Shown here: positions 4,123 to 57,669 of the stretch, one piece after another
How positions within the stretch are numbered: position 1 is the first letter of the stretch
Layout of the letters: the number at the start of each line of letters is the position of its first letter
NCBI GenBank assembly: GCA_002422795.1
Contig: DITJ01000004.1
Location: forward strand, 31,329-95,328
DNA length: 64,000 nucleotides
Direction: 5' to 3'
Source of the DNA: Alphaproteobacteria bacterium UBA6187
GTDB lineage: Bacteria > Pseudomonadota > Alphaproteobacteria > Rickettsiales > UBA6187
Position numbers and translations under genes: made by a program
The notes under the pieces: generated by a model
Seen by the model: the letters and a program-made list of their open reading frames with translations, nothing else
Told to the model about the DNA's origin: nothing
Databases searched by the model: none

Positions 4123-5419
<1,297 letters not shown>

Positions 5420-5512
5420 TTCATATACATTCAGCTTATCTTCTAGGCAATAGTAAAAATTGACGTGTAGCTAAAGTAAGTTATATAATGGCTATTTTAA
5501 GTGTAAAAAATA

Positions 5513-8373: not shown

Positions 8374-8380
8374 ATAACAA

Positions 8381-8446
8381 ATTTAAGATTTAAGATGTTA
8401 GATTTAAGATGTATAAATCTGCAATCTTAAATCTTAAATCTTAAAT
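8381..8446. repeat. repeat-arm hairpin, TTAAGAT family
   Basis: atttaagatttaagatgttagatttaagat faces atctgcaatcttaaatcttaaatcttaaat. It ends 6 nt before the next start codon. Confidence 0.8.
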
Positions 8447-8452
8447 TTACTT

Positions 8453-17245: not shown

Positions 17246-17253
17246 GCAGTCAG

Positions 17254-17939: not shown

Positions 17940-18036
17940 TACTGAGCGCTGTTTGTATTTATCTATTTCACTTGTTGTATTTTCCCTATTTTTATGTAAA
18001 ATATTTTCACCAAATTAGGAAGTATAGGAAATACTT

Positions 18037-19826: not shown

Positions 19827-19839
19827 CTCTTATTCTATG

Positions 19840-22431: not shown

Positions 22432-22437
22432 TCGTTA

Positions 22438-22548
22438 TCAGAGTTCAGAATTCAGAGTTCAGAGTTCAGTTAAGTTAAGTAGTAAGACATCATATATAAA
22501 AATATAAAAAATCCAATACTGAACTCTGAACTCTGAACTCCGAACTCT
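22438..22548. repeat. repeat-arm hairpin, TCAGAGT family, between proB and proA
   Basis: tcagagttcagaattcagagttcagagttcag faces ctgaactctgaactctgaactccgaactct. It ends 6 nt from the proA start. Confidence 0.85.
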
Positions 22549-22554
22549 AAAACC

Positions 22555-23692: not shown

Positions 23693-23907
23693 GTTAGTGT
23701 ATTAGGTGATAGGTAATAGGTTTCAGGTGATGGGGAAGAAAAATATAGTAAATTTCATTTTTATTTACGCGTTGTCGTTCAGCGGATTCATAAAATTCAC
23801 GTAGTATACCTACGCTAAAATTTTATTCACCTTGAACTCCTAGCGTAAATAAAAAGCAAATTCACTATACTTCCCTAACACCCATTCCCTAACACCTATC
23901 ACCTAAT
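23693..23907. repeat. repeat-arm hairpin (TAGGTGA-type) whose loop carries a MITE
   Basis: The arms at 23693..23735 and 23870..23907 end in 12 perfectly complementary nt (taggtgataggt / acctatcaccta). The MITE at 23744..23869 lies between them. Confidence 0.7.
23744..23869. mobile_element. MITE, arm type B / core type 2
   Basis: Arms are tatagtaaatttcatttttatttacgcg / gcgtaaataaaaagcaaattcactata. The core cggattcataaaattcacgtag...aaaattttattcaccttgaactcctag is shared with the 26169, 27809 and 28698 elements. Confidence 0.8.
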
Positions 23908-26363: not shown

Positions 26364-27248
26364 ATGAACATGTTTAAAGGTGCAATAACCGCGCTTATTA
26401 CGCCATTCAAAGATGGCAAAGTTGATGAAAAAGCGTATCAGGCATTTATAGAGTGGCAGATTAATGAAGGAATCCATGGCCTTGTGCCGTGCGGTACTAC
26501 AGGCGAATCCCCAACCCTTACCCACGAAGAGCATAACCGTGTGATTGAATTATGCGTGGAAGTGGCAAAGGGCAGGGTGCCTGTGATTGCTGGAACCGGT
26601 TCAAATTCAACAGAAGAAGCTGTTGCCCTTTCTGTTCACGCTGAAAAATGCGGTGCGGATGCAGTGCTGGTTGCCGCGCCTTATTATAACAAACCTAACC
26701 AGGAAGGTTTATTCCAGCATTATAAAGCGATTAATGATGCCATTAATATCCCGATTATAACTTACAATATCCCTGGCCGTTCCGTGGTTGATATTGCTGA
26801 TGAAACGACCGTGCGTATGGTTCATGAGCTTAAAAACATTGTTGGTATAAAAGATGCTACAGGCAATTTGGTTCGCGTAAGTACTTTAAGGATGAAGCTG
26901 GAAGGAAGAGGGTTCTGCCAGTTATCTGGTGATGACGGCACGGCTATTGCTTTTAATTCGCAAGGCGGTGTGGGCTGCATATCCGTTACATCCAATATTG
27001 CCCCTAAAATGGTGGCAGGTGTTCAGAATTTATGGTTTGCCGGAAAAGCAAAAGAGGCATTGGAACTGCATGATAAATTAATGCCGCTGCATGTGGCAAT
27101 GTTTTGCGATACCAGCCCTGGCCCTGCAAAATATGCAGCGAGCCTGCTAAATCTATGCGCACCCGATGTGCGCCTGCCAATTGTTGCCCCTGCAGAAGAT
27201 AAAAAGGTGCAAGTGAAAAAAGCAATGCGGGAGGTGGGTATCATTTAG
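26364..27248 (+). CDS. dapA: 4-hydroxy-tetrahydrodipicolinate synthase
   Basis: GTTGES, YNIPGRS and the active-site Lys context GIKDATG. Confidence 0.95.
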   Translation: MNMFKGAITALITPFKDGKVDEKAYQAFIEWQINEGIHGLVPCGTTGESPTLTHEEHNRVIELCVEVAKGRVPVIAGTGSNSTEEAVALSVHAEKCGADAVLVAAPYYNKPNQEGLFQHYKAINDAINIPIITYNIPGRSVVDIADETTVRMVHELKNIVGIKDATGNLVRVSTLRMKLEGRGFCQLSGDDGTAIAFNSQGGVGCISVTSNIAPKMVAGVQNLWFAGKAKEALELHDKLMPLHVAMFCDTSPGPAKYAASLLNLCAPDVRLPIVAPAEDKKVQVKKAMREVGII

Positions 27249-27316
27249 GGATTGGGATTTAGGGATTGGGGCGCAGAAGAGCCTCCCAATCCCTAATCCC
27301 CATTCCCTAATCCCTA
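27246..27316. repeat. repeat-arm hairpin, TAGGGAT/GGGATT family
   Basis: tagggattgggatttagggattgggg faces cccaatccctaatccccattccctaatcccta. It overlaps the dapA stop and ends 6 nt before the smpB ATG. Confidence 0.85.
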
Positions 27317-27322
27317 TTAAGA

Positions 27323-32597: not shown

Positions 32598-32626
32598 TTT
32601 TTTATTCCTTATTTCTTTGATTGAAG

Positions 32627-32659
32627 AAGATTGCAGATTATTTTTTAATCTTAAATCTT
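32627..32659. repeat. short repeat-arm hairpin, TTAAGAT family
   Basis: aagattgcagatt faces aatcttaaatctt, between mazG and rluC. Confidence 0.55.
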
Positions 32660-32661
32660 AA

Positions 32662-35122: not shown

Positions 35123-35127
35123 AAGAA

Positions 35128-35199
35128 TAGTTGCTAGTTGCTAGTTGCTAGTTGCTAGTGGCTGGGTACTAGTAACTAGTAACTAGCAACTAGCAACTA
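35128..35199. repeat. repeat-arm hairpin, (TAGTTGC)x4 facing (CTAGTAAC/CTAGCAAC)x4
   Basis: It fills the exbB-exbD spacer and ends 5 nt from the exbD ATG. TAG recurs at period 7, so it falls in all three frames on both strands. Confidence 0.9.
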
Positions 35200-36000: not shown

Positions 36001-38538
36001 ATGGCTAACAAGAAGTTTTCAGCTCGCACTATAGGTGATATAGAAGAAATAGAAGTTGAGTCGATAGAGCAGGATATGTCGGATATTATAGAGGATGAGC
36101 CTCTTCCTGTAGAAGAAGCTACAGAAATCAATAAAGTTACCAATCCCCTTAAAAAGACGCTAAAGCGCATTATTGCAGGTGCGGTAATAATAGTGCTTGC
36201 TGTAGTGCTTTTCTTTCTTGGCGGAGTTTTCGGTTCGGGAGAGGGAATATCAACTATCGCCCCGTCGCCTGTTAATCCAGGAAATAATAATAAACTAGTA
36301 TACGTAACCGGTGCTGCTCTTGAGCAGGAGTTTACCGATCCCATGTTTAATGTTTCCGCCAGGGGTCTGGGGCTTGAGCGCCTGGTAGAAATGTACCAGT
36401 GGAGCCTGGAAAAAGATACTTATATAAAAAAATGGTCCAGTGAGCCAATTGCAATATCTGATGAGGATGCAAAAAATAAGGGTTTTATAAATCCGGCAGA
36501 ACTGCCTTTCTTCTCTGATAAATGGCTGGCGGATAAGGTAATGATTGGCGATTTCAATATTTCCCCTGAGCTTGTAAAGCAGTTGAGTAATTCAACCCCC
36601 CTTGCTGTTACAGAGGAGAATTTCAATAAACTTAATGAAGATGGAAAAAACGCATTTAAACTTTTTGAGGGCGGTTATTTCTTTGGAATAGACCCCGCAA
36701 ATCCCCATATTGGCGATTTAAGGATTACCTTTAAAGCTTCTGCTGCCGGCCAACTTACTGTACTTGCGAAGCAATCTGCAAATTCATTGGAGCCATATAT
36801 TGGCAAGAATGGACTTGTTGGAATATTACGCGCTGGGAATCATGACCTTGCCGCAATGAAACAGGGTATCGTTGCCAGTGGAAATCTGATGCTAACTATA
36901 GCAATGCGTGCAGTGTCGGTTTTATGCTTAATAATTGGCGGCCTGATAATTATAGGTAAAAACCCTTTCCGTAAAAAAGAAAAAATCCAGGAAGGTAACT
37001 CCATCTCTCCTATGATAGTCCGGGAGGAAACAGAAAGTTATGTAGATGCGGAGGAAGATGTCCAGGTTGCCGATGACGAGGAGTATGACATTCCTACGGA
37101 TATTATCGAGCCTAATGATATAATGGTAACAGAAACTCCAACTATTAAAGAAACTCGGCCTTCTACCTATGTTGATCCTGTTTTAATGCGTCTATCTACC
37201 ACTGATGAAGATGGTAAAAAAAGGAATGTTAATATTCCGGTAATAGAAAAAACGGAAGCGCCTGCGCCACTTGAATTTGAAATGGAAGATTCTAATCACG
37301 ATATTTATGCGGGTGAAGAGTCTAAGCAGCATCAATCTTTAGGGGAATATGAAAATAAACCCGGTTCAACTGGTAATAACGCATATGTAAGTATGGACAA
37401 GGGGAATCAGCCTGGAACGACTTATGAGCCGAGAGCAGAATCCAATCGTTATGTAAGCAGCGGGTATTCAAAAGAATACGAAGATGAAATGCCAGATGGG
37501 GTTGATGTTATTAGTGATGGCGGCTTTGAAGAGATGGCCGGTGATATTAATTCGGACGTAGCTGAACAAAGCAATTCTTTCGATAGCTACCAAAATCCTT
37601 TTTCTGCGCCGAGCCATACTCTTATGGAAGAGGTAAGTTATCTTGATAATTCAACCCAAATTCCTGACGAGGTAGAGGTTATTTCTGAAGAAGAAGATGC
37701 CCCTGAATCTCTTTGGGAGGCTAAGGAGCCGCTGCATTCTTTAAGTTCTGATGAATTGCCAGATAATATAAGCGACAACTCGGAAGAGCCTGTATTTGCT
37801 GAGCATGATGCGCTGCAAAACATTCTATCGCCTCTTTCAACAGCCCATGATTTGCCTGATGCTCAAATCACTCCTGAGCCGGAATTGCCGTCATGGGAGG
37901 AGGCTGAGCTAGAGGAAGAAGATAATGGTCAAGCCAGCTTACCTGCGCTTCCGCCGCTACCTGATTTCCTAAGTTTCAAGAATGCGCCTGAGCCGGAATT
38001 GCCATCATGGGAGGAGCCTGAGCTGGAGGAAGAAGATAATGTTCAAGCCAGCCTGCCTGCGCTTCCGCCATTGCCTGATTTCCTAAGTTTCAAAAATGCG
38101 CCTGAGCCGGAATTACCATCATGGGAGGAGCCTGAGCTGGAGGAAGAAGATAATGGTCAAGCCAGCCTGCCTGCGCTTCCGCCATTGCCTGATTTCCTAA
38201 GTTTCAAGAATCCGCCTGAGCCGGAATTGCCATCATGGGCTGAGCCTGAACTGGATGAAGAAAATGAAGAGCCAGCCAGCTTACCTGCGCTTCCGCCACT
38301 TCCTGATTTTGATAAATTTACAAGTCCGGTTGCGAAGCAAAGTGAGGCTATGGATAATATAGATTCAAATCCTTTATTTGATTTACCTAATATCCCGGAA
38401 GATTTTGATCCTAACCAGGAGATGCCTGCGTTATCAACCATGGATATTGAGGATTTTAGCGACACACCGATGGAAGAAGATGCTTATTCGCCATTTGATA
38501 CAGAAGATACGTTTGCCACTACCGAAGAAGAGAAATAA
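36001..38538 (+). CDS. TMEM43/DUF1625-like membrane protein with a ~520-aa acidic, proline-rich repeat tail
   Basis: The N-terminal half has a TM segment, VEMYQW, GFINPAELPF, GDLRITFKA, and a second TM (MLTIAMRAVSVLCLIIGGLIIIG). The C-terminal half is D/E-rich and includes 4 x 38-aa repeats. Confidence 0.65.
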   Translation: MANKKFSARTIGDIEEIEVESIEQDMSDIIEDEPLPVEEATEINKVTNPLKKTLKRIIAGAVIIVLAVVLFFLGGVFGSGEGISTIAPSPVNPGNNNKLVYVTGAALEQEFTDPMFNVSARGLGLERLVEMYQWSLEKDTYIKKWSSEPIAISDEDAKNKGFINPAELPFFSDKWLADKVMIGDFNISPELVKQLSNSTPLAVTEENFNKLNEDGKNAFKLFEGGYFFGIDPANPHIGDLRITFKASAAGQLTVLAKQSANSLEPYIGKNGLVGILRAGNHDLAAMKQGIVASGNLMLTIAMRAVSVLCLIIGGLIIIGKNPFRKKEKIQEGNSISPMIVREETESYVDAEEDVQVADDEEYDIPTDIIEPNDIMVTETPTIKETRPSTYVDPVLMRLSTTDEDGKKRNVNIPVIEKTEAPAPLEFEMEDSNHDIYAGEESKQHQSLGEYENKPGSTGNNAYVSMDKGNQPGTTYEPRAESNRYVSSGYSKEYEDEMPDGVDVISDGGFEEMAGDINSDVAEQSNSFDSYQNPFSAPSHTLMEEVSYLDNSTQIPDEVEVISEEEDAPESLWEAKEPLHSLSSDELPDNISDNSEEPVFAEHDALQNILSPLSTAHDLPDAQITPEPELPSWEEAELEEEDNGQASLPALPPLPDFLSFKNAPEPELPSWEEPELEEEDNVQASLPALPPLPDFLSFKNAPEPELPSWEEPELEEEDNGQASLPALPPLPDFLSFKNPPEPELPSWAEPELDEENEEPASLPALPPLPDFDKFTSPVAKQSEAMDNIDSNPLFDLPNIPEDFDPNQEMPALSTMDIEDFSDTPMEEDAYSPFDTEDTFATTEEEK
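37873..38316. repeat. 4 x 114-bp tandem repeat encoding PEPELPSWEEPELEEEDNGQASLPALPPLPDFLSFKNA
   Basis: The marker cctgagccggaatt recurs at 37873, 37987, 38101 and 38215. Confidence 0.9.
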
Positions 38539-45716: not shown

Positions 45717-45722
45717 AAGGAT

Positions 45723-45858
45723 AGAATGTTAGAGTGTAAGAATGTAAGAATGTAAGAGCATTAGAATCGCAACGCAATCTTTTTGTGTTTCGATAAAATA
45801 AGGTAGTGCAGTAAGTATATATTTTTTACGCTCTTACATTCTAACACTCTTACATTCT
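45723..45858. repeat. repeat-arm hairpin, GTAAGAAT (8-nt) family
   Basis: agaatgttagagtgtaagaatgtaagaatgtaagagc faces gctcttacattctaacactcttacattct, with a 70-nt loop. It fills the comF / C-N hydrolase spacer. Confidence 0.8.
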
Positions 45859-45867
45859 CATGCTCTT

Positions 45868-46599: not shown

Positions 46600-46620
46600 G
46601 GGCTGTATTTCTGGGAATTA

Positions 46621-46769
46621 TAGTAATTTAACTTAAAAATTGCCCATTTCGTCATGACCCGAGTTTGCGCTTGCAAACTATAGGGTCATCCATCTTAAAG
46701 CTGGATTCCCCTATAGTTTTTGAAGAAAAAACTCGGGGAATGACGGGGCATTCTTAAGTTAAATTACTA
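46621..46769. mobile_element. palindromic MITE-like element with ~45-bp TIRs
   Basis: tagtaatttaacttaaaaattgcccatttcgtcatgacccgagtt faces aactcggggaatgacggggcattcttaagttaaattacta. Confidence 0.75.
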
Positions 46770-46824
46770 TAAATTCTGGAATGACAATGCAAATATTTCT
46801 ATAAAATAAGGTGTTACTTGCGGC

Positions 46825-47526
46825 CTATAAAGGCACAGCCTGCCTTCTTCTTCTATCTGGTTTTACGCGCCTTGGTTTATTTGCATCTTCTGAAACGCGG
46901 GAGCGGATGTAATCTTCAATATGTGAATTAAGGTCATCCATGTGAGAGCGGTAGAAATGGTCAGCACCAAGAATGATGCGATAGTCAATTCCGGCATTCC
47001 TTTGTTTACCAAGTTTTTCAGAAAGGCGGCTCACATTATCCACAGAAACCACGCTATCCTGGTCGCCTTGCAGGATTAAACCATGTGCAGGGCAAGGAGA
47101 TAGGAAGTTAAAGTCAAAATTACCAACAGGAGGGGAAACAGCTATGAAGCCATCTATTTCCGGGCGGCGCATTAATAACTGCATACCAATCCATGAGCCG
47201 AAAGAAAACCCGCCCATCCAGTAAGATGAAGCGTTCGGGTTCTGGATTTGCAGCCAATCTAGCACTGAAGCGGCATCAGAAAGCTCGCCTATGCCATCGT
47301 CATATTTACCCTGGGAGCGGCCAACGCCACGAAAATTAAAGCGCACAACAGAAAAGCCGTTACGTGCAAAGGCATGATAAAGGTTGTATGCAACTTTATT
47401 ATTCATGGTGCCACCATGAAGCGGATGCGGGTGCAATATGATTGCAGCAGGGGCATTTTTTTTGTCACTATGGTGATAACGGGCTTCAATCCTGCCCTCG
47501 GGGCCGCTTATGATTATTTCAGGCAT
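46825..47526 (-). CDS. alpha/beta hydrolase fold protein
   Basis: HPHPLHGGTMNNKV and the nucleophile-elbow-like motif GGFSFGS, with a basic C-terminal tail. Confidence 0.7.
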   Translation of the reverse strand: MPEIIISGPEGRIEARYHHSDKKNAPAAIILHPHPLHGGTMNNKVAYNLYHAFARNGFSVVRFNFRGVGRSQGKYDDGIGELSDAASVLDWLQIQNPNASSYWMGGFSFGSWIGMQLLMRRPEIDGFIAVSPPVGNFDFNFLSPCPAHGLILQGDQDSVVSVDNVSRLSEKLGKQRNAGIDYRIILGADHFYRSHMDDLNSHIEDYIRSRVSEDANKPRRVKPDRRRRQAVPL

Positions 47527-47546
47527 TGCTGTTCTGTTCCCTTAAA

Positions 47547-47579
47547 ATACTTGACTATTTTGCTAGGATATTATATATA
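47547..47579 (+). promoter_or_regulatory. candidate IscR type-1 operator overlapping a sigma70-like promoter
   Basis: atacttgactattttgctaggatat (47547..47571) matches 21 of 25 positions of ATASYYGACTRWWWYAGTCRRSTAT. TTGACT at 47551 and TATATA at 47574 are 17 nt apart. Confidence 0.5.
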
Positions 47580-47687
47580 AAAGCGCTATAATACCTAGAT
47601 AACTGAAAAAGCTGTGTTTTTATTAAAGCAAAACACATAAAAAAGCAAGGTTAAACTTACTTTAGGTAGGCAGAGCGGGGAAATGGC

Positions 47688-48149
47688 GTGAACCTTACAA
47701 CAAAAGGCAGATATGCGGTGATGGCGATGGTGGATATTGCCATGCAAGGTGGTAATAGGCCTGTAACGCTTTCTGAAATTTCCACCCGTCAGGATATAGC
47801 TGTTAGCTACCTTGAGCAGATTTTTATGAAACTACGTAAAAATGGCCTGGTGGCCTCGGTGCGTGGCCCGGGCGGTGGATATATTCTACCGGTTAATGCA
47901 ATGGAAATAAAAATATCGGATATAGTTACGGCTGTTGATGAATCAATAAAAATGACCAGATGCACGGATAAAGGCGCTAAAGGTTGCATGGATAAAGGTG
48001 CAAAATGCATCACACATAATCTTTGGGAAGGGCTTGGGCGTCGTATTTTTGATTATTTAAGCTCTGTTTCCCTGGCGGATATATGCAAAGATAAGCAAAA
48101 TGTTGTTTTTGCGCATGAAGAGCCAAGGGGTGTTCATGCTAAAAGATAG
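47688..48149 (+). CDS. iscR: Rrf2 family transcriptional regulator (IscR)
   Basis: GTG start. Rrf2 wHTH (LTTKGRYAVMAMVDIA...ISYLEQIFMKLRKNGLV) and a Cys cluster (RCTDKGAKGCMDKGAKCITH). Confidence 0.85.
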   Translation: MNLTTKGRYAVMAMVDIAMQGGNRPVTLSEISTRQDIAVSYLEQIFMKLRKNGLVASVRGPGGGYILPVNAMEIKISDIVTAVDESIKMTRCTDKGAKGCMDKGAKCITHNLWEGLGRRIFDYLSSVSLADICKDKQNVVFAHEEPRGVHAKR

Positions 48150-49260
48150 CCATATTTATATGGATAATAATGCAACCGTTGTAACAAGCCAAAAAGTGCT
48201 TGCTGCAATGCAAGAACTGCACGGCTTGCCACTTAATGCTTCTTCTATACATGCATCCGGCAGAAGGGCGCGTGGCTTACTGGAAGCGGTAAGGGAAAGG
48301 ATAGCGGCACTTACAAATTGCGGCAATGCCAGAATTGTATTTACAGCATCGGGCACAGAAAGCAACAACATGGCGCTTCGGGGGCTTGCTGGTTATAAAG
48401 TGCTGGTATCGGCTGTTGAACATGCATCAATACGCAAAATTGGTGTGCATGAGGGTGAAATAGCAGTAAACGGTGATGGTGTGGTTGATATTGCCGCGCT
48501 TTGCCAACAGCTTCGGAATTATAAGGATGGTAAATTTCTAGTATCTGTAATGCTGGCTAATAATGAAACCGGGGTAATCCAGCCGATAAAGGAAATTGCT
48601 GAAATAGTCCATGCGCATGGCGGCTTAATACACACTGATGCGGTGCAAGCTTTTGGTAAAATAAATGTGGATATGGCAGCGCTGGGCGCGGATATGCTTA
48701 CAATATCAGCGCATAAATTTGGTGGCCCACAAGGTGCTGCGGCATTGATTTTTAAAAAAGGCGCGAAGCTGGAATCGATTATTATGGGCGGCGGCCAAGA
48801 GCAAGGATACCGCGCAGGCACCGAAAATGTGCTTGCGATACATGGGTTTGGCGCAGCGGCTTTAGAGGCTACGGAATCGCTGGAAAATTCTGATAATATC
48901 GCCAGGATTCGTGATAAGATTGAAACGGAGATAAAAAATATTGCGCCTGATGCGGTAATATTCGGGCAAAGTGCTATAAGGCTTCCCAATACAAGTATGA
49001 TTGCGATGCCTTATGTGCCATCTGGAACGCAAGTTATGCATTTTGATATGGAAAGCATTGCGGTGAGTGCGGGTTCAGCCTGTTCTTCTGGCAAGGTTGA
49101 AGTATCACATGTTTTGCTGGCAATGGGCGTGCCTGAGAATTTGGCAAAATGTGCAATAAGGGTAAGCCTTGGTATTAATAATACAATTGATGATGCAGAA
49201 AAATTTGTAATTGCCTGGAAAAAGCTTTATGAGAGAGCTGGAATAAAAAGGGCAGCATGA
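48136..49260 (+). CDS. cysteine desulfurase, NifS-like paralog
   Basis: Class V aminotransferase with the PLP lysine in SAHKFGGPQG and the active-site Cys in SAGSACSSG. Start set to ATG 48136. Confidence 0.85.
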   Translation: MLKDSHIYMDNNATVVTSQKVLAAMQELHGLPLNASSIHASGRRARGLLEAVRERIAALTNCGNARIVFTASGTESNNMALRGLAGYKVLVSAVEHASIRKIGVHEGEIAVNGDGVVDIAALCQQLRNYKDGKFLVSVMLANNETGVIQPIKEIAEIVHAHGGLIHTDAVQAFGKINVDMAALGADMLTISAHKFGGPQGAAALIFKKGAKLESIIMGGGQEQGYRAGTENVLAIHGFGAAALEATESLENSDNIARIRDKIETEIKNIAPDAVIFGQSAIRLPNTSMIAMPYVPSGTQVMHFDMESIAVSAGSACSSGKVEVSHVLLAMGVPENLAKCAIRVSLGINNTIDDAEKFVIAWKKLYERAGIKRAA

Positions 49261-49262
49261 AA

Positions 49263-49361
49263 GGAGTGATAAGTAGTAAGTGTTAAGTGTCTATTAAACT
49301 TAGGTTTGTATTGTTGTTAATCTGAGTTCGCTAGCCACTAGCCACTTACCACTTACCACTC
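49263..49361. repeat. repeat-arm hairpin (GTAAGTG / TAGCCAC-TTACCAC)
   Basis: ggagtgataagtagtaagtgttaagtg faces ctagccactagccacttaccacttaccactc. Confidence 0.7.
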
Positions 49362-49378
49362 TCTTAACGGAGAAAGTG

Positions 49379-50602
49379 ATGAACGCTAATATAAAACTAC
49401 CAATATACATGGACTACCAGGCCACAACGCCTATGGACCCGCGTGTATTTGAAGCGATGACACCATATTTTATGGAAAAATTCGGCAACCCGCATTCCAG
49501 CGGCCATAAATTTGGCTGGGAAGCGGAAGCTGCAACTGACCTTGCGCGTGAGCAGGTGGCAGCGTTAATCGGCGCGAATGAAAAAGAAATCATTTTCACT
49601 TCAGGCGCAACTGAATCGAACAACCTTGCTATAAAAGGTATTGCAAAATTTTATGGTGATAAGAAAAACCATATAATCACCGTGGTAACTGAGCATAAAT
49701 GCGTGCTTGATACCTGCCGCCACTTAGAGCGTGAGGGTATGAATGTTACATATCTGCCAGTGCAGAAAAACGGCCTGATTGACCTTGCTGAGCTTGAAAA
49801 AGCTATCACTGATAAAACAGTTTTAATATCGGTAATGGCGGTTAATAACGAAATTGGTGTTATCCAGCCACTCAAGGAAATTGGCGCGCTTTGCCGCAAA
49901 TACGGAGCGTTTTTCCATACAGATGCCGCGCAAGGCTTCGGCAAGATACCTCTTGATGTTGAGGAAATGAACATCGATTTGATGAGCATTTCCGGCCATA
50001 AAATTTATGGGCCAAAAGGTATTGGCGCTTTATTTGTAAGGCGTAAACCAAGGGTTCGCCTTATACCGATTATAAATGGCGGTGGGCAGGAACGCGGTTT
50101 CCGTTCTGGTACACTTCCAACCCCATTAGTGGTGGGTTTGGGCGAGGCAGCGCGCCTTGCTAAAATTGAAATGGTGGAAGAAAATAAACGCCTTACCTAT
50201 TTAAGCGGCAAGCTTTATGATAATATAATGGCTAAAGCTAAGGATGTTTTCTTAAATGGCGATAAAGAACATCGCATAGCTGGCAATTTGAATTTAAGTT
50301 TTGCCTATATTGAAGGTGAATCAATGATTATGGCTATTAAAACCCTGGCAGTAAGTTCAGGTTCGGCATGCACATCATCAAGCCTTGAGCCTTCTTATGT
50401 TCTGCGCTCAATCGGTGTGGGTGAGGAACTGGCGCATACTTCCATAAGGTTCGGCATAGGCCGCTTTACAACAGAAGCCGAAATTGATTATGCAATTGAA
50501 ATTGTTACCGGCTCTATCGATAAGCTCAGGGAAATGAGTCCTTTATGGGAAATGGTTCAGGAAGGAATTGATATTGAGAAGATTGAGTGGGCAGCTCATT
50601 AG
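49379..50602 (+). CDS. iscS: cysteine desulfurase IscS
   Basis: [34 protein letters not shown], and the C-terminal IEWAAH. Confidence 0.95.
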
Positions 50603-50647
50603 GATTTAAGATTTATACTTTTAATCTTAAATCTTAAATTTTAAATC
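50602..50647. repeat. repeat-arm hairpin, TTAAGAT family
   Basis: ggatttaagattta faces taatcttaaatcttaaattttaaatc. It starts at the iscS stop codon. Confidence 0.7.
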
Positions 50648-50691
50648 TAAAATTTTCTAAGCCCGTAAACGTAAATATTGGAGATAAAACA

Positions 50692-51066
50692 TTGGCTTAC
50701 AGCGAAAAAGTAATCGATCACTACGAAAACCCGCGCAATGTGGGTTCTTTTGGTAAAGAAGAATCAGGCATAGGCACAGGGCTTGTTGGCGCGCCAGCTT
50801 GTGGTGACGTTATGAAATTACAGATAAAAGTAAAAGATGGCATAATTGAAGATGCTAAATTTAAAACTTTCGGCTGTGGTTCTGCGATTGCATCATCATC
50901 ACTTATAACCGAGATGGTAAAGGGCAAGTCCTTAGAAGATGCTGGCAAAATAAAGAATTTAGAGATAGCGCAAGAATTATCACTGCCGCCTGTAAAGATT
51001 CACTGCTCAGTTTTAGCAGAAGATGCGATTAAGGCCGCGATTGAGGATTATAAGAAGAATAATTAA
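50692..51066 (+). CDS. iscU: Fe-S cluster scaffold IscU
   Basis: TTG start with GGAGA 8 nt upstream. (M)AYSEKVIDHYENPRNVG, GAPACGDVM, FKTFGCGSAIASSS and PPVKIHCSVLAEDA. Confidence 0.95.
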   Translation: MAYSEKVIDHYENPRNVGSFGKEESGIGTGLVGAPACGDVMKLQIKVKDGIIEDAKFKTFGCGSAIASSSLITEMVKGKSLEDAGKIKNLEIAQELSLPPVKIHCSVLAEDAIKAAIEDYKKNN

Positions 51067-51073
51067 TTAGTTG

Positions 51074-51146
51074 TCAGAGTTTAGAATTCAGAGTTCAGTG
51101 TTACGGCTGACTTTTCTGAACTCTGAATTCTGAATTCTGGACTCTA
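51074..51146. repeat. repeat-arm hairpin, TCAGAGT family
   Basis: tcagagtttagaattcagagttcag faces ctgaactctgaattctgaattctggactcta. It ends 5 nt before the iscA ATG. Confidence 0.85.
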
Positions 51147-51151
51147 AATAT

Positions 51152-51502
51152 ATGGCAAAAGCACCAATAAACATCACAGAAACAGCCGCAATACGCATCC
51201 AGGCATTATTAGAGCAGCGGGGCAAGCCTTCTGCCGGAATAAAGGTTGGCGTGCGTTCTGGCGGCTGTTCTGGCCTGGCCTATACAATTGAATACGCCGA
51301 TGAAATTGGCCCTTATGATGAAGTGGTGGCGTATCCTGATAGCACAGATACAAAATTTAAGGTGTTAATTGACCCTAAAGCGATAATGTATATTATCGGC
51401 ACGAATATGGATTATATAGAAGGCAAAATGAAATCTGGTTTTGAATTCGTAAATCCAAATGAAAAAGGTCGCTGCGGTTGCGGTGAGAGTTTTAATGTTT
51501 GA
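51152..51502 (+). CDS. iscA: iron-sulfur cluster insertion protein (IscA/HesB family)
   Basis: GGCSGLAY and the C-terminal CGCGESF. Confidence 0.9.
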   Translation: MAKAPINITETAAIRIQALLEQRGKPSAGIKVGVRSGGCSGLAYTIEYADEIGPYDEVVAYPDSTDTKFKVLIDPKAIMYIIGTNMDYIEGKMKSGFEFVNPNEKGRCGCGESFNV

Positions 51503-51600
51503 GGAGAGTGTGGGAGTGTAAGAGTGTAAGAATGTAAGTGAAAGACTAAGGATGAATTCTAAATTTCTTTTACTTACACTCTTACATTCTTACACTCTCC
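51501..51600. repeat. repeat-arm hairpin, GAGTGTAA (8-nt) family
   Basis: gaggagagtgtgggagtgtaagagtgtaagaatgtaagtg faces cttttacttacactcttacattcttacactctcc. It begins within the iscA stop codon and ends 9 nt before the hscB ATG. Confidence 0.85.
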
Positions 51601-51609
51601 TTAATACTA

Positions 51610-52200
51610 ATGACTATAAAATGCTGGAACTGCAATACTCCATTAGGTGCAACAGATTTATTCTGCCAACTTTGCGCAAAAATCCAGCCGCCAGCGCAAA
51701 CCGATCATTTCACCCGCCTTTCCATGCCACATGATTTCGACCTTGGCATAAAAAAGCTTGAAGTTGCTTATTTTTCCATGCAGACAAAACTCCACCCCGA
51801 CCGCTTTACTGCTAAAAGCGAAAAGGAAAAACTATTTTCCATGCAGCAATCAATGAGTGTGAACGAGGCTTATGAGGCACTAAAAAGCCCGCTTAGCCGC
51901 GCCGAATATTTATTGAAACTTGAAGGCATAATTGTTAATGCAGATAATAGCACAGTAAAGCCATCGCAGGAATTATTGATGGAAAGCCTTGAGGCGCGTG
52001 AGGCATTATCTAATGCAAAAACACCGGAAGATATAAGGCAGATTACCATTGAAAATATGGAACACCGCCTTGAAGCAATAGATTCAATAAAGCAGAATTT
52101 TATTGATAGAAAATTTGAAGATGCAGCACAAAATACTATAAGGCTGCGTTATTTAGAAAAATTAAATGAGGAGATAAAAAGGGAGGGGACAAAGGGATAA
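51610..52200 (+). CDS. hscB: Fe-S protein assembly co-chaperone HscB (with N-terminal Cys4 finger)
   Basis: CWNC...CQLC, a J-domain with the LHPD motif, and a C-terminal helical bundle. Confidence 0.85.
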   Translation: MTIKCWNCNTPLGATDLFCQLCAKIQPPAQTDHFTRLSMPHDFDLGIKKLEVAYFSMQTKLHPDRFTAKSEKEKLFSMQQSMSVNEAYEALKSPLSRAEYLLKLEGIIVNADNSTVKPSQELLMESLEAREALSNAKTPEDIRQITIENMEHRLEAIDSIKQNFIDRKFEDAAQNTIRLRYLEKLNEEIKREGTKG

Positions 52201-52313
52201 GGGAATAAGGGATTAAGAGAGAAAGAAAAGGGAAAGGGAGAAGAGAATCCTTACTAATACCTTGTCAATTTACCTTAATCCCTTAATCCCTTATTCCCTT
52301 ATCCCTTTGTCCC
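52186..52313. repeat. repeat-arm hairpin, ATAAGGGA (8-nt) family, 32-bp perfect arms
   Basis: gggacaaagggataagggaataagggattaag (52186..52217, including the last hscB codons and the stop) is the perfect reverse complement of part of 52273..52313. Confidence 0.9.
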
Positions 52314-52322
52314 TTCACTGCT

Positions 52323-54179
52323 ATGTTATTACAAATCCATGAACCAGGCCAAACACCCCTGCCACACGAAAATGATGATGAAATTGCTATAGGCATAGAC
52401 CTTGGCACAACCAATTCGCTTGTGGCATTTGCAAAAGATGGCAAACCGGAAGTTATGGCCGATGAGCAGGGTAATTTCCTGCACCCATCTATAGTTAGCT
52501 ATTTAGAAAATGGTGCAGTTGTAACTGGTCATGCAGCAAAAATCGGGAACGGACAGGTTATAAGTTCCATAAAGCGGCTGATGGGTAAGGGTGCGGGCGA
52601 CGTAAAAAAAATCTCCGGCCAGTTACCATATAAAATTGCTGCAAGTGAAGGAATGGTAAGGCTGGATATTGGGGGCAAGAAACTTACCCCCGTGGAAATA
52701 TCATCAGAAATTTTAAAATCCCTAAAGAAGATTGCTGAAAAAGCATTAAGCAAAGAAATATCAAAAGCGGTGATTACTGTTCCGGCATATTTTGATGACT
52801 CCGCCCGCACTGCCACGCGGGATGCCGCAAGGCTTGCCGGTATGGAAGTTTTGCGCCTGGTAAATGAACCAACGGCAGCAGCGCTTGCTTATGGGCTGGA
52901 TAAAGGGGCGGAAGGTATTTATGCCATATATGATTTGGGCGGTGGCACGTTTGATATATCCATATTAAAAATGGAAAAAGGTGTATTTCAGGTACTTGCA
53001 ACTGGCGGCACTATCGAGATTGGCGGCGATGATTTCGACCGCGAAGTTGCCGAAATTTTCCTATGGCAATGCCGTAATATTTCTGGAAGCAGCCTTAACC
53101 CTTCCGAATTAGAACTTAAAGAATTACTAAAAACCGCACGAAAAGCCAAAGAATATTTGAGCGAAAATGAAGATGGTGAGTTTGCAGTTACTATTTCCGG
53201 GCAGAAATTTACAGCAAAAATCAGCCGCACAGAACTAGAAAAAGCCATGCAGCCATATATAAGTGCAACACTTGATATTTCCGAGCAAGTGCTGGTTGAC
53301 GCGGATGTAACCCGTGATGAAATTAAAGGTGTGGTGCTAGTGGGCGGCTCCACCCGCGCGCCGCTGGTACGCGCCTATGTAAAAAATATATTGGGCAAAG
53401 AGCCGCTGATTGATATCGACCCTGATAAAGTAGTTGCCGAAGGCGCGGCTCTCCAGGCCGAAGGGCTAACGCGTGGTTCTGATAATTTATTGCTGGATGT
53501 AATTCCGCTATCGCTAGGCTTAGAAACTATGGGCGGACTGGTGGAAAAAGTAATCCACCGCAATACCCCGATACCGGTTTCAAAAGCGCAAGAATTCACC
53601 ACCTATCAGGATGGGCAAACCGGTATGGTGATCCATGTTGTGCAGGGTGAACGTGAAATGACCCAGCAAAACCGCTCGCTGGCAAAATTTGAGTTAAAAA
53701 ACATTCCGGCAATGAAAGCCGGCATTGCGCGTATTAAGGTTGTTTTTGCTGTGGATGCTGACGGACTGCTTACTGTTAGCGCATTGGAAGAAACAACCGG
53801 AACCCGCCAAACAATTGAAGTGAAGCCTTCTTATGGCCTAAGCCATGAAGAAATAAAAGAAATGTTATATGCTTCTATGGAACATGGCAGGGATGATATG
53901 GCGATGCGTCTTTTAGCGGAGGCGAAAATTGAAGCGCAAAGGCTTATAATAGCTCTTGATAGCAGCATTAAAGATGATTCCGATTTACTTTCAACAAGTG
54001 AACTTAGTGATATTAATAGACTGAAGAACAAGTTACAGGAAAGCCTGCAAGGTGAGGATAGGGAATTGATTCTTGCAAATAATAAGAAACTCGAAGAAAT
54101 ATCCACAGATTTTGCCTCAAACATAATGAACAAACATATTGCCGCTTCCTTAAAGGGAAGGCGGATTGAGGAGTGTTGA
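52323..54179 (+). CDS. hscA: Fe-S protein assembly chaperone HscA (Hsp70 family)
   Basis: IGIDLGTTNS, DLGGGTFD and VLVGGSTRAP. Confidence 0.95.
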   Translation: MLLQIHEPGQTPLPHENDDEIAIGIDLGTTNSLVAFAKDGKPEVMADEQGNFLHPSIVSYLENGAVVTGHAAKIGNGQVISSIKRLMGKGAGDVKKISGQLPYKIAASEGMVRLDIGGKKLTPVEISSEILKSLKKIAEKALSKEISKAVITVPAYFDDSARTATRDAARLAGMEVLRLVNEPTAAALAYGLDKGAEGIYAIYDLGGGTFDISILKMEKGVFQVLATGGTIEIGGDDFDREVAEIFLWQCRNISGSSLNPSELELKELLKTARKAKEYLSENEDGEFAVTISGQKFTAKISRTELEKAMQPYISATLDISEQVLVDADVTRDEIKGVVLVGGSTRAPLVRAYVKNILGKEPLIDIDPDKVVAEGAALQAEGLTRGSDNLLLDVIPLSLGLETMGGLVEKVIHRNTPIPVSKAQEFTTYQDGQTGMVIHVVQGEREMTQQNRSLAKFELKNIPAMKAGIARIKVVFAVDADGLLTVSALEETTGTRQTIEVKPSYGLSHEEIKEMLYASMEHGRDDMAMRLLAEAKIEAQRLIIALDSSIKDDSDLLSTSELSDINRLKNKLQESLQGEDRELILANNKKLEEISTDFASNIMNKHIAASLKGRRIEEC

Positions 54180-54180
54180 T

Positions 54181-54240
54181 TTAGGGGTGGTTAGTGGTCA
54201 GTAAAGAGCAGTGTAAACAACGCTTAACACTTATCGCTCC
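54181..54240. repeat. weak repeat-arm hairpin related to the 49263 element
   Basis: ggtggttagtggtcagt faces cgcttaacacttatcgctcc at about 70% complementarity. The arm sequences resemble those at 49263..49361. Confidence 0.35.
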
Positions 54241-54377
54241 TTGGATTACTACTCCTTGACTTGCCACAAATATAAAACTACCTGATGACAAGGCAAAGAA
54301 ATGCTGTTAAAGACTTTATATAATCTGGCCAGTGGGTTGGGAATTATAAGTTTTGTCTGTTTAAATATCTGGTAAAG

Positions 54378-56570
54378 ATGCGTATTATCTATGCAATATT
54401 GTTGATTTTATCTGCGGCAGCAGTGCCTGCTTTGTCGCGCGATGCATATGCGCAGTCTGCTCCTTCCCTTAATTCAAATGGGATAACAAACACCCCAGCA
54501 CTTATAAAAGCTGAAACAATTACCTATGATACCGAAAATGCTATTGTAACCGCTATCGGTAATGTAGAAATTACGCAAGGCAAGCGGATATTACTTGCTG
54601 ATAGCCTTACTTACGACAAAGATAATAATATTGTAAATGCACATGGAAATATCAGCTTGCTTGAACCAGGCGGTACTGTGATATTTTCTGATCATGTGGA
54701 GTTACGGGATGATTTAAAAACCGGAATAGTAGAAAATTTCAGCGCACGTTTTTCTGATAATTCCTTAGTGGCTGCAAATAGCGGCGAGCGTATTGATGAA
54801 GATAAGATTGTAATCAAGCAGGTTGTATATTCGCCATGCCCGTTATGCAAGGAAACACCGGATAAAGATCCTTTATGGCAAGTATCTGCAAAAGAAGCGA
54901 CTATTGATAGTAAAGACCAGAGGGTTATTTATAATAATGCTTTCTTTGAAATATATGGCGTACCAACTCTTTATACCCCTTATTTTTCTCATCCTACACC
55001 TGATGCAGATAGAAAAAGCGGTTTCCTGATACCTAAATACACGCATGACGGAATTTTCGGAACTTCGGTAAAAACGCCATATTACTACAATATTGCACCA
55101 AATATGGATGCCACTATTTCCCCAACTTTTACTGCTAATGAAGGAGGAATACTTGCAGGTGAGTTCAGGCACCTTGTTCCTGAGGGGGAGTATTTCTTGA
55201 AAGGCAGTATAACTAACCCTGAAAAGGTTGATGCATCGGGTAATAAAATTGACGGTCATGATGTGCGCAGCCATATAGAGGGTAAGGGGGAATTTGCAAT
55301 AAATGACTCATGGAACTGGGGTTTTCAAGGCAAAAGGGCATCGGATGATACATATCTTAAGAGGTATAATTTCGGTGACGAGGATGTTTTAACCTCAAGC
55401 CTTCATGCTAACAAGATTGAGAACAGGGACCATATTTTAATTAATACTATTTCATTCCAGGGGCTGAAAACCACCGATGATCCTGGGGAAACGCCGCTTA
55501 TATTGCCTTATGCAGAATCCCACACAGAGCGAAGTATCGGGGAGAGTGGGGCAAGGGCAGCACTTGATACAAATATACTGGCTTTAACCAGGGATGAGGG
55601 AGCAAGCAGCAACAGAATATCTTTAAAAGGCACCGTTTCGCAGCCATATATCACAAAATCCGGGAGTGTTTTTGAAGCTGCCGCATCGCTACGCGGGGAT
55701 GGTTATGTTGTAAATGATGTGGAAGATCCTTCAAACCCGGCAAATACCCTAGATGGTTATGAAGAAAGGGTAATACCTGAGGCTAATTTGAAGTGGTCTT
55801 TGCCTATGGTAAAGAAAGGGGGGGAGCGCCATTATTTAATTGAGCCTATTACAAATTTTATTGTTAGCCCAAATGGTGGCAATCCTGATAAAATCCCTAA
55901 TGAAGATAGCCAGGACATAGAATTTTCTGCCGAAAACCTATTCGAAAATAACCATTTTTCCGGCTATGACAGGATAGAGCATGGGCCAAGGGTGAATTAT
56001 GGACTCAGGACAAGTGTAAGTGATTATAAAAAGGGAGATGTGAATTTCCTGTTCGGACAAAGCTACAGGGCGAATGAAAATCCTGATTTTAGCGTGCCGA
56101 GCGGTCTTTCTGATAACCTGTCTGACTATGTAGGAAAATTAAGTTATAATAAAAATGATATTTTTGATGTTGCATATAAGTTCAGGTTTGATAAGGATAG
56201 TTTTGCCATAAGAAATAATACTGTGTCTGGAACGGTAAATTATGCCCCGGTACGCTTTACAATGGATTATGTGGCAATTAATGAAAATTCTGCCGCAACC
56301 TTATCAACCACAGCGCCGGATGAGAACCGTGAAGTTATAATAGCCGGAACAAATATTGACCTTAGTGAGAAATGGGAATTCGAAGCCAATGGAAACAGGA
56401 ACCTTGCAAGTGGTGAGTGGGTTTCTACAAAAAGTGGTTTTGTGTATAAGGGCGCGTGTGTAGACTTCTCACTGAATTGGTTAAGGGAATATACAAGGGA
56501 TCGTGATATACAGCCAAACAGCACCTTTTCGTTCCAGGTTAATTTGAAGAATATGGGGCAACGTAATTAA
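54378..56570 (+). CDS. lptD: LPS-assembly protein LptD
   Basis: 730 aa with a signal peptide, an N-terminal OstA-like domain (ITYDTENAIVTAIGNVEI) and a large beta-barrel. Upstream of surA. Confidence 0.9.
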   Translation: MRIIYAILLILSAAAVPALSRDAYAQSAPSLNSNGITNTPALIKAETITYDTENAIVTAIGNVEITQGKRILLADSLTYDKDNNIVNAHGNISLLEPGGTVIFSDHVELRDDLKTGIVENFSARFSDNSLVAANSGERIDEDKIVIKQVVYSPCPLCKETPDKDPLWQVSAKEATIDSKDQRVIYNNAFFEIYGVPTLYTPYFSHPTPDADRKSGFLIPKYTHDGIFGTSVKTPYYYNIAPNMDATISPTFTANEGGILAGEFRHLVPEGEYFLKGSITNPEKVDASGNKIDGHDVRSHIEGKGEFAINDSWNWGFQGKRASDDTYLKRYNFGDEDVLTSSLHANKIENRDHILINTISFQGLKTTDDPGETPLILPYAESHTERSIGESGARAALDTNILALTRDEGASSNRISLKGTVSQPYITKSGSVFEAAASLRGDGYVVNDVEDPSNPANTLDGYEERVIPEANLKWSLPMVKKGGERHYLIEPITNFIVSPNGGNPDKIPNEDSQDIEFSAENLFENNHFSGYDRIEHGPRVNYGLRTSVSDYKKGDVNFLFGQSYRANENPDFSVPSGLSDNLSDYVGKLSYNKNDIFDVAYKFRFDKDSFAIRNNTVSGTVNYAPVRFTMDYVAINENSAATLSTTAPDENREVIIAGTNIDLSEKWEFEANGNRNLASGEWVSTKSGFVYKGACVDFSLNWLREYTRDRDIQPNSTFSFQVNLKNMGQRN

Positions 56571-56584: not shown

Positions 56585-57577
56585 ATGATAAAAATTAAAA
56601 AAACAATGTCGAGGATAGGCATTATACGAAATTTACATTTAATTGGATTTATTATTTTGCTAGCTTCTGCTTTGCCCGCAATGGCACAAAAAGAGCTTGG
56701 TATTGCAGCTATAGTAAATAACAGCGCTATATCTACCGTAGATCTTAGGGAGCGTATGGGAATCGCCATGTTTGCCTCTAACCTTCCAAAAGGAAAAGGG
56801 TTTGAAGAGAAACTGCTTCCACAAGTGCTCCGTAACCTTATCGACGAACGCATTTATCTGAAGGAAGCTGAAAATCTTGGTATTGAAATCAGCAAGGAGG
56901 ATATAGGCAGGGTGGTTGCCGATATAGAAAAAAGAAACGGTATTCAGCCCGGCAAATTCGAGCAATATATGAATTTGAATGGAGCTTCTTATAGCTCGAT
57001 GATCGATCAAATAAGAGCGCAGCTTACCTGGAATAAAATAATAGCAAAGAAAATCCGCCCGCAAGTTAATGTAACAGATAAGGAAATAGCTGAGAAAATA
57101 GAGTATATTTCAAACCAGGCAGGGGCTGAGGAGGCTAATATTTCAGAAATATTATTACTTGTTGATTCTGAAAACGAAGATAAAAAAATCAAAGACCTGG
57201 CTAATAAACTGATAGGGCAGCTTCGGAAGGGCGGGGATTTTAATAAAATCGCCAAGCAATTTTCAAAAGCTTCTACGGCAGAAAATGGTGGTGATATTGG
57301 TTGGATAAGGGTAGCACAACTTCCTGATGAACTTTCCGGCCTTGTGAAAAATATGCAGGCTGGTGAAGTATCTGACCCTATCAAAACTACAGAAGGCTAT
57401 GCTGTAGTAAAACTGAAGGAAAAACGAACAACCGCAGCCCTTGATAAAGATGCGGCATCTAACGTGGAGCTAAAAAATAAAATACGTGAAAACTTAATGA
57501 TGAAAAAAATGGAAATTCGCGCTAACAAATATTTACGCGAATTGCGCCGTGGTGCATTTATTGAAGTGAGGATTTGA
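56585..57577 (+). CDS. surA: SurA-like periplasmic chaperone / parvulin PPIase
   Basis: Signal peptide (…ALPAMAQ), a SurA N-terminal domain and one parvulin domain (GGDIGWI...GEVSDPIKTTEGY). ATG 56585 was preferred over TTG 56573. Confidence 0.85.
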   Translation: MIKIKKTMSRIGIIRNLHLIGFIILLASALPAMAQKELGIAAIVNNSAISTVDLRERMGIAMFASNLPKGKGFEEKLLPQVLRNLIDERIYLKEAENLGIEISKEDIGRVVADIEKRNGIQPGKFEQYMNLNGASYSSMIDQIRAQLTWNKIIAKKIRPQVNVTDKEIAEKIEYISNQAGAEEANISEILLLVDSENEDKKIKDLANKLIGQLRKGGDFNKIAKQFSKASTAENGGDIGWIRVAQLPDELSGLVKNMQAGEVSDPIKTTEGYAVVKLKEKRTTAALDKDAASNVELKNKIRENLMMKKMEIRANKYLRELRRGAFIEVRI

Positions 57578-57582
57578 AGTAA

Positions 57583-57660
57583 TTTTAGATTTAAGAAGTA
57601 AGATTTAAGATTTACGAATCATAAATCATAAATCATAAATCATAAATCATAAATCTTAAA
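57583..57660. repeat. repeat-arm hairpin, TTAAGAT family, with an (ATCATAA)x5 microsatellite arm
   Basis: ttttagatttaagaagtaagatttaagattta faces aatcataaatcataaatcataaatcataaatcataaatcttaaa. It ends 9 nt before the rsmA ATG. Confidence 0.8.
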
Positions 57661-57669
57661 TGTATTTTT

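Follow-up and report, generated by a model that had tools for sequence, protein, structure and literature searches.

The analysed stretch, hereafter the window, comprised 64,000 nucleotides of contig DITJ01000004.1 (positions 31,329 to 95,328, forward strand; assembly GCA_002422795.1) from the alphaproteobacterium UBA6187, and carried an isc-hsc gene cluster whose intercistronic spacers form hairpins with repetitive arms. The region contained genes for an Rrf2-family (iscR-type) regulator, two cysteine desulfurases (nifS-like and iscS), iscU, iscA, hscB and hscA. Inverted-repeat searches and Tandem Repeats Finder revealed that tandem arrays with a period of 7 or 8 nt made up the hairpin arms in all five isc-hsc spacers, as had been noticed in a preliminary description made from the sequence, and several shifted registers were found for the same arms, which bore out the multi-register pairing proposed there. 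The accompanying statement that each spacer consists almost wholly of one inverted repeat had to be restricted at iscS/iscU, where the hairpin covered only the first ~55%.

RNA folds were scored as z values against 200 dinucleotide shuffles, and all five hairpins were described on the plus strand. The nifS-like/iscS hairpin (49264..49361; inverted repeats 49264-49306 and 49319-49361) folded at -37.7 kcal/mol (z -4.4) with an interrupted stem, and was built from units of about 7 nt, AGTGATA, AGTAGTA and AGTGTTA on the left and CACTAGC, CACTTAC and CACTTAC on the right, with AAGGAG at the left base and GGAG after the right arm. In the iscS/iscU hairpin (50599..50653; inverted repeats 50599-50615 and 50628-50644; -16.6 kcal/mol, z -3.0), a short A/U-rich stem of 14 bp at 50600-50636 took in the TAG stop; the unit was ATTTAAG / AATCTTA, additional unit copies in the right arm were unpaired, and the remainder of the spacer was an ordinary leader with GGAG. 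The iscU/iscA hairpin (51067..51150; inverted repeats 51064-51098 and 51116-51150; -40.1 kcal/mol, z -9.0) used the unit TCAGAGT / CTGAACT (GAGTTCA phase) and ended 1-4 nt ahead of the ATG. Units of 8 nt were found in the last two spacers. The iscA/hscB hairpin (51499..51604; inverted repeats 51499-51530 and 51573-51604, with a second register at 51514-51545 and 51566-51597; -55.2 kcal/mol, z -11.2) was composed of GAGTGTAA/GAATGTAA, its stem base holding the iscA TGA and GAGGAG and its stem ending 5 nt ahead of the ATG, while the hscB/hscA hairpin (52180..52319; inverted repeats 52180-52225 and 52274-52319; -73.9 kcal/mol, z -8.3) was composed of AAGGGATA / CCTTAATC and ended 3 nt ahead of the ATG. 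Consecutive base pairs in the RNA folds numbered 25 for iscU-iscA, 29 for iscA-hscB and ~35 for hscB-hscA, with a range of 14-35 across the stems.

The sixth spacer, after hscA (54177-54290), showed no significant hairpin in the shuffle test (z -0.5). AGT-phased remnants (GGTTAGT, GGTCAGT and further ones), with no significant fold, were visible at 54180-54262, and the equivalent post-hscA sites of relatives (designated here by L numbers), namely downstream of hscA in L085 and between hscA and fdx in L013 and L031, held a TAGTTGC hairpin that was either clear or half-decayed. The copy in the window may be a decayed sixth hairpin.

The arms were closely tied to the upstream stop codon, as first described: the iscA TGA and the iscS TAG lay inside the stem, and the last HscB residues and stop were encoded by an arm. 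The segment 52186..52217 had been given as the last hscB codons, which was correct for 52186-52200 (codons and stop), while 52201-52217 lay past the stop. In this way the left arm of the hscB/hscA hairpin coded for the six final residues REGTKG, so that the window protein ended in ...EEIK|REGTKG*, compared with ...EEIK|NR* in the 93%-identical L083 with its different arm. Stops in all three frames, which had been expected from a period that is not a multiple of 3, were enriched (5/11 of the 5' arms and 6/11 of the 3' arms, compared with 10% of random 32-mers) but not universal, being absent from the TCAGAGT arms.

It had also been claimed that a Shine-Dalgarno (SD) motif is missing between the arms and the next start codon. 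This applied to iscA, hscB and hscA, whereas iscS and iscU retained GGAG after the hairpin. With a strong SD taken as one whose anti-SD duplex is predicted at -6 kcal/mol or lower, such motifs preceded 6/43 of the other window genes and 3/12 of the hairpin-preceded genes (~9/55 overall); the missing SD is not specific to hairpins because the entire window is SD-poor, and its absence was rejected as a special property of them. Cyanobacteria, Bacteroidetes and the repeat-bearing genes of Beggiatoa, all known heptamer-repeat lineages, are SD-poor as well, and that they have this in common with the window is maybe no coincidence. At the stop-side stem base, on the other hand, SD-like motifs were found for 6/12 hairpins compared with 8/43 other stop regions (Fisher p = 0.037; Mann-Whitney p = 0.008), an enrichment partly owed to the G-rich units of the arms. 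The idea of a split ribosome-binding site, in which the SD stays at the 5' stem base, received modest support. In phage T4 gene 38, a hairpin between SD and start draws the two together; the likeness to the window is the hairpin at SD and start, and the T4 example differs in being a single case with no tandem-repeat arms.

Strong stem-loops right after stop codons could also suggest that the isc-hsc cistrons are separated by intrinsic terminators or attenuators. Such an explanation was exceedingly improbable, since the stems were A/U-rich instead of G+C-rich, no U-tract followed the arms, and five successive terminations would silence essential downstream genes. Terminator-like sites in 47000-55000 occurred at the level of chance (11 vs 9.0 +/- 2.8) and none coincided with a hairpin, so the terminator/attenuator candidate was rejected. 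Among the roles suggested at the outset, intercistronic mRNA processing would be the best supported by analogy, and attenuation or termination was unsupported.

The framing of these hairpins as a peculiarity of the isc-hsc operon proved too narrow, as at least 14 of them were dispersed over the window. A detector for facing tandem arrays with reverse-complementary units returned 6 pairs under strict and 9 under relaxed settings in the window, and 0 in 30 second-order Markov simulations. On the plus strand, hairpins were located at the mlaC/eamA junction (8379..8448; unit ATTTAAG; z -8.4), at the dapA/smpB junction (27243..27318; units ATTTAGGG/ATTGGG; z -5.9), where the dapA TAG stop was overlapped, and at the surA/ksgA junction (57576..57668; z -3.8), where the left arm was of ATTTAAG type and the right arm had been homogenised to the variant AATCATA x5, giving weaker pairing. 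The dapA-smpB arm units ATTTAGGG and ATTGGG (27243-27271) bore a chance resemblance to eukaryotic telomere repeats and to G-quadruplex-forming heptamers. On the minus strand, they were located at the proB/proA junction (22434..22553; unit GAGTTCA, the family of 51067-51150; z -10.4), at the tolQ/tolR junction (35126..35199; unit TAGTTGC, also present in L013 and L031; z -9.5), between a phosphoribosyltransferase-like and a CN-hydrolase gene (45718..45866; 8-nt unit GAATGTAA, the family of 51499-51604; z -7.4), and, as a small ATTTAAG-type remnant, in a 64-nt co-directional spacer (32617..32661). Two further hairpins lay in divergent spacers: the first (5329..5420) had arms homogenised to the unlike variants AGGTTTC x5 and CCTGACA, and the second (23699..23906; unit TAGGTGA) had a 166-nt loop with a copy of another dispersed palindromic repeat. 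Unit families were thus shared between loci, namely GAGTTCA (22434, 51067), ATTTAAG (8379, 50599, 57576, 32617) and GAATGTAA (45718, 51499); 8-nt units were used in 3/14 window hairpins and the other 11 were heptameric.

The location of these elements was determined from all spacers of the window. Twelve short co-directional spacers (64-151 nt, a size class with about 15 members) contained nothing but a hairpin, and two hairpins were in divergent spacers. The flanking open reading frames (ORFs) were confirmed with Pfam and included the classical operon pairs proB-proA, tolQ-tolR, dapA-smpB and mlaC-eamA. Convergent spacers and ~6.6 kb of long co-directional spacers contained 0 hairpins, the long ones holding other palindromic repeat families. 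The densities in co-directional and divergent spacers (~1.5 vs 1.2 per kb) were not convincingly different, and the true positional bias is one for tight junctions over long spacers. Without the hairpin, each junction would shrink to between a few and a few tens of nt, which indicated that the elements occupy operon-internal stop/start junctions. When the contig was extended by 14 kb, 0 periodic-arm hairpins were detected in the added part. No polymorphism was found between independent assemblies, an ENA metagenome contig and a Logan contig (L001 and L002) being identical to the window.

A gene-bearing form of the same element was recognised at the iscS-iscU spacer of relatives. In L030, L031, L041 and L046, heptamer-periodic inverted arms with locus-specific units enclosed an ORF of ~120-136 codons for a four-helix-bundle (4HB) protein. 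The L031 ORF matched TIGR02436 "four helix bundle protein" with E = 1e-38, with a weaker match to the Avd model of diversity-generating retroelements, and the L030 copy contained an internal stop codon. This family, which goes under the annotations S23p and "23S rRNA intervening-sequence protein", is distantly related to Avd. In L084, only 4HB residues 73-117 remained between the periodic arms (E = 4e-4), L086 had a gene-less hairpin, and the window has its small gene-less hairpin at the same site. Taken together, these loci form a series from the gene-bearing cassette to the bare hairpin, and the two forms are kin.

4HB genes from unrelated metagenomes were surveyed; three of these proteins were aligned to serve as the query, and 80 loci were returned, 72 of them evaluable. 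A bracketing inverted repeat was present at 46/72 and clearly periodic arms at 32/72, the period being 7 in all but one. In a displacement control on the 47 loci with enough flank (800-nt shift), inverted repeats were found at 29/47 and periodic arms at 21/47, compared with 0/82 displaced windows. No rRNA was present in the 20 loci examined. The left arm abutted or overlapped an upstream stop belonging to a co-oriented ORF in 17/23 cassettes, compared with 9% of random positions; the right arm lay -1 to +14 nt from the downstream start in 15/23 vs 44% in the control, a measure that does not discriminate. Gene-less period-7 hairpins were also more frequent beside 4HB cassettes than in generic hscA loci, by eightfold (0.74 vs 0.09 per 10 kb). 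Among annotated plasmids, 22/23 records carrying a 4HB gene were cyanobacterial, and the cassettes of N. punctiforme, Anabaena sp. 90 and Calothrix had the layout stop, arm, gene, arm, start. One of them, on the Anabaena sp. 90 plasmid pANA02 (L172; NC_019429.1 43692-45221), carried (AGGTGAC)n arms and lay in a CRISPR-cas operon, with cas6 on one side and cas4 on the other.

Both forms had the same polarity, 5'-(AGTN4)n ... (N4ACT)n-3'. In the 5' arm, AGT and ACT stood at 28:0 among the 4HB cassettes and at 21:0 among the gene-less hairpins of all DNA analysed. An AG(T/G) core was present in 32/36 units compared with 29% expected, and AG was in phase in 14/14 window units. Since the palindrome is identical on both strands, this polarity is intrinsic to the element and not tied to gene direction; for the same reason, the notion of a polarity linked to transcription, with the G-rich arm towards the gene, was rejected. 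A three-base core held at fixed phase across phyla would also be expected of protein-binding arrays, in which AGT/ACT boxes 7 bp apart are bound on RNA or DNA by a multimer, either a toroidal pentameric 4HB protein as candidate or a host factor, the hairpin being secondary. In favour of it, the arrays are physically linked to the 4HB gene, Xanthomonas S23p is a homopentameric toroid of four-helix bundles as cited in PMC4990558, and a heptamer-binding partner was postulated in Nostoc (preprint 10.1101/2022.06.06.494920). As an account of the window it was quite unlikely, because 78 kb of this genome contained 0 4HB genes and the window units were more degenerate than the 4HB-linked ones, although it is compatible with the cassette interpretation that we favour below.

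The orthologous spacers of relatives were then compared. The best species representatives were uncultured Rickettsiales/Alphaproteobacteria metagenome-assembled genomes (MAGs) with 64% HscA identity, and closer relatives by HscB identity were L083 (93%), L084 (77%), L085 (75%) and L086 (72%). L084 and L085 had overlapping or 15-nt junctions at the sites of 107-122-nt hairpins in the window, and in L004, the closest GTDB relative, the spacers were 14-58 nt, iscA-hscB excepted. The GAGTGTAA hairpin at iscA-hscB was common to the window, L083 and L086; L085 had a degenerate GAGTATAA version, and L004 a hairpin rich in GAGTGT. At hscB-hscA, L083 retained the loop core GAATCCTTAC, with both arms made of TAGGTGA 7-mers compared with AAGGGATA 8-mers in the window. 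This switch of unit, together with the unlike-variant arms of the hairpins at 5329 and 57576, indicated slippage within each arm, and the arms turn over rapidly in the manner of microsatellites.

In-place slippage of a short unit combined with quasi-palindrome correction, with no mobile or cassette ancestry, would readily produce arms each homogenised to its own variant, different units and even periods around one retained loop core in L083 and the window, and same-unit copies without common loops. Among long simple-sequence repeats, heptamers are moreover the most frequent in many bacteria (Mrazek 2007, as reported in PMC4679880). We nevertheless regarded a purely local mutational origin as very unlikely: it does not account for a polarity that is strictly AGT-first (21:0 and 28:0), conservation of the AG(T/G) core, identical units at several loci and in distant genomes, the tight tie to one gene family (29/47 vs 0/82), or the restriction to tight junctions when long spacers are far larger.

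Several loops contained further insertions. A relative of the palindromic repeat at window 46618-46772 was nested inside the iscA-hscB loop of L083 (L083:1-60), and a relative of the 17252-17360 repeat was nested in the loop (23744-23871) of the 23699-23906 hairpin; loops enclosed by periodic arms seem to be hot-spots for insertion. Other small ORFs were inserted in isc spacers of several "Rickettsiales" MAGs, at iscU-iscA in L013 and L031 and at iscS-iscU in L044, L045 and L040. The ORF inserted at iscU-iscA in L013 and L031 started with MGRIVAKVEV...VDTGATYLTLP and resembled a retropepsin-type aspartic protease.

The same comparison bears on whether the hairpins are intercistronic RNA devices selected by the host, which would protect the upstream mRNA from 3'-exonucleases, set the stoichiometry of cistrons or couple translation from stop to start. 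The stem base lies a few nt from both stop and start at most junctions, the right arm at iscA-hscB of L086 was identical to that of the window at 26/26 nt despite 72% HscB identity, and a role in stability or translational coupling was proposed for the hairpins of short tandemly repeated repetitive (STRR) elements in cyanobacteria (PMC2670836). The folding strand gave a mixed picture: three hairpins favoured sense by 10-18 kcal/mol, with up to 9 G-U pairs, but six slightly favoured antisense, so that no consistent RNA-strand signature emerged. The SD-like motifs at the stop-side base speak for a device, and their partial origin in G-rich units speaks against it. Since the close relatives L084 and L085 have overlapping or 15-nt junctions where the window has hairpins, the arms lose complementarity at 5329 and 57582, and the same elements are found in divergent spacers, a host-selected device was considered unlikely.

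The preliminary description knew of no element class with this arm grammar. That proved incorrect, as the grammar is already described in three places. Hairpins of 7-bp STRR between cistrons, such as hupS-hupL, were called "not unusual" in filamentous cyanobacteria (PMC2670836). It was in the lineages of Nostoc, Anabaena and Calothrix, now seen to carry the 4HB cassette, that STRR heptamers and their hairpins were first reported. In the 23S rRNA of Coxiella, an intervening sequence (IVS) has a 28-bp terminal stem with tandem GACAGAT x2-3 by strain, a decaying S23p ORF and an RNase III cut in the stem (PMC4990558). TAACTGA heptamer arrays of Beggiatoaceae end ~1 nt before starts, close three frames and overlap upstream stops, where SD is rare (PMC4679880).

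Compared with the S23p-type IVS of Coxiella burnetii, the elements studied here shared the long-stem terminal inverted repeats, heptamers in the arms that vary by strain, a loop ORF of the same 4HB family and the decay of that ORF. This architecture was seen in full in relatives of the window organism at the iscS-iscU spacer (L031, L041, L046) and as a remnant in L084. Differently, the IVS lies within a 23S rRNA helix (9, 25 or 45), whereas the window elements lie between protein-coding cistrons and have no loop ORF, and RNase III cleavage, demonstrated for the Coxiella IVS, would apply here only by analogy. S23p-type 23S IVSs have also been reported for Leptospira and Brucella. The cyanobacterial STRR resemble the window elements in their 7-bp tandem units, in forming hairpins between co-transcribed genes and in the bracketing of cyanobacterial 4HB genes by such arrays; the host here is an uncultured alphaproteobacterium, and 8-nt units occur too, the likeness being one of architecture. 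The TAACTGA arrays, known from marine Beggiatoaceae, some cyanobacteria and Bacteroidetes, share start adjacency, stop overlap and three-frame stops, and have an ACT core like that of the 3' arms here; unlike them, they comprise 169 direct sets vs one inverted, with no partner arm and no predicted hairpin.

REP/BIME, ERIC, RPE, REPIN and miniature inverted-repeat transposable elements (MITEs) are likewise short dispersed intergenic palindromes, often between co-transcribed genes, that give RNA hairpins, but they have a fixed consensus and no micro-tandem arms, whereas here the unit varies and the period and core are kept. The earlier distinction from REP/BIME, ERIC and RPE was therefore retained, on the ground that there is no fixed consensus and the unit differs by site, and without direct comparison to their consensus sequences. 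Of MITE-like features, inverted termini were present; no shared loops or target-site duplications were seen by eye, no systematic search for the latter being made. Rfam at gathering thresholds returned only a tRNA for the window and no match to the hairpins. In the literature searched, including that on STRR, no link between STRR and the 4HB gene was found, nor were a cassette outside rRNA, the operon-junction geometry and the AGT/ACT polarity, although earlier descriptions may exist.

On this evidence we favour, with a probability of about 0.6, the reading that the isc-hsc spacers are gene-less, IVS-like selfish palindromic cassettes, the full form of which has a TIGR02436 4HB gene in the loop. 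As the cassettes occupy tight junctions, from stop to start, between co-directional genes of an operon, they would be transcribed by the host operon within its mRNA. The transcript would then form a long near-perfect duplex (25-35 consecutive bp in three of the five spacers), presumably a natural RNase III substrate by analogy with the structurally equivalent Coxiella 23S IVS. Insertion could be tolerated because the stem base sets the upstream stop and the downstream start a few nt apart: either ribosomes would couple across the folded hairpin, or cleavage would free a leader that is short, poor in G and independent of SD, which this genome scarcely uses in any case. The arms would evolve like microsatellites, by slippage and homogenisation in each arm with complementarity restored between them. 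Tolerated selfish DNA is a more probable description of the hairpins than a regulator specific to isc.

Several points weigh against this reading. No 4HB gene or recognisable remnant was detected in the window and the 14 kb of extra contig (78 kb, tblastn included), so that the descent of the window hairpins from gene-bearing cassettes is only inferred, and the 4HB gene could be cargo that entered pre-existing hairpin loops, as other repeats clearly do. Copies with the same unit shared no loops, and whole-element copy-and-paste was not evident; in a self-BLAST of the window only the ATTTAAG-family copies were linked. AGT or AGG was present in only 7/11 window heptamer units, the ATTTAAG family having AGA. 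The identity of the arm in the window and L086 looks like constraint and not neutrality. Judged from their predicted folds, the iscS-iscU (14-bp, A/U-rich) and nifS-iscS (interrupted) stems would be weak RNase III substrates. Finally, transcription, RNase III cleavage and any translational effect are putative.

A wider possibility, tentative and on the whole doubtful, is that the window hairpins, STRR hairpins, Beggiatoa-type arrays and S23p-type IVSs constitute one unnamed class of selfish "intervening sequence" cassette. Such cassettes would target operon stop/start junctions and rRNA helices, with either removal or tolerance at the level of RNA, and their polar arms would be recognised, and perhaps synthesised or mobilised, by their own Avd-like 4HB protein, possibly with a reverse transcriptase. 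The question of what STRR heptamers are goes back to about 1990. The function of heptamer repeats was still regarded as open in a 2022 preprint (10.1101/2022.06.06.494920). If the idea is correct, the nature of STRR heptamers, the origin of S23p-type IVSs and the role of the very common, function-less "four helix bundle / S23 ribosomal protein" genes may have one cause. Many bacterial operons, including essential ones (isc-hsc, proBA, tolQR), would hold long double-stranded RNA at cistron junctions. This would affect processing by RNase III, the coupling of translation, the calling of genes, whose stops and C-terminal residues can come from arms, and the assembly of short reads. Orthologous junctions that have or lack the hairpin are testable constructs, and Nostoc punctiforme and Anabaena sp. 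90 are culturable models of the same cassette. In this sense the hairpins are ordinary as an "isc operon regulator" and interesting as an entry to an under-described, apparently very widespread element class.

The window also contained further dispersed repeat families of 110-170 nt, mostly palindromic and MITE-like, with copies 72-97% identical. Copies were located at 13661-13811 and 19837-19986, at 16015-16182 and 17776-17943, at 11444-11554, 29305-29415 and 17253-17330, and at 26209-26320 and 28744-28855, in addition to the repeat at 46618-46772. These families fill the long intergenic spacers, which marks the genome as unusually repeat-rich. Window 1-3600, continued in L168:11056-17589, looks like part of a prophage or a gene-transfer-agent-like region (Pfam matches including Minor_tail_Z, Rcc01698_C, phage lysozyme and ParB_N), in which 0 periodic-arm hairpins were found. 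Two in-frame tandem repeats, each with ~91% identity, were observed within long ORFs: one of 120-nt period x2.5 at 30093-30395, inside the minus-strand ORF 30009-31505, and one of 114-nt period x3.8 at 37873-38309, inside the plus-strand ORF 36001-38538.

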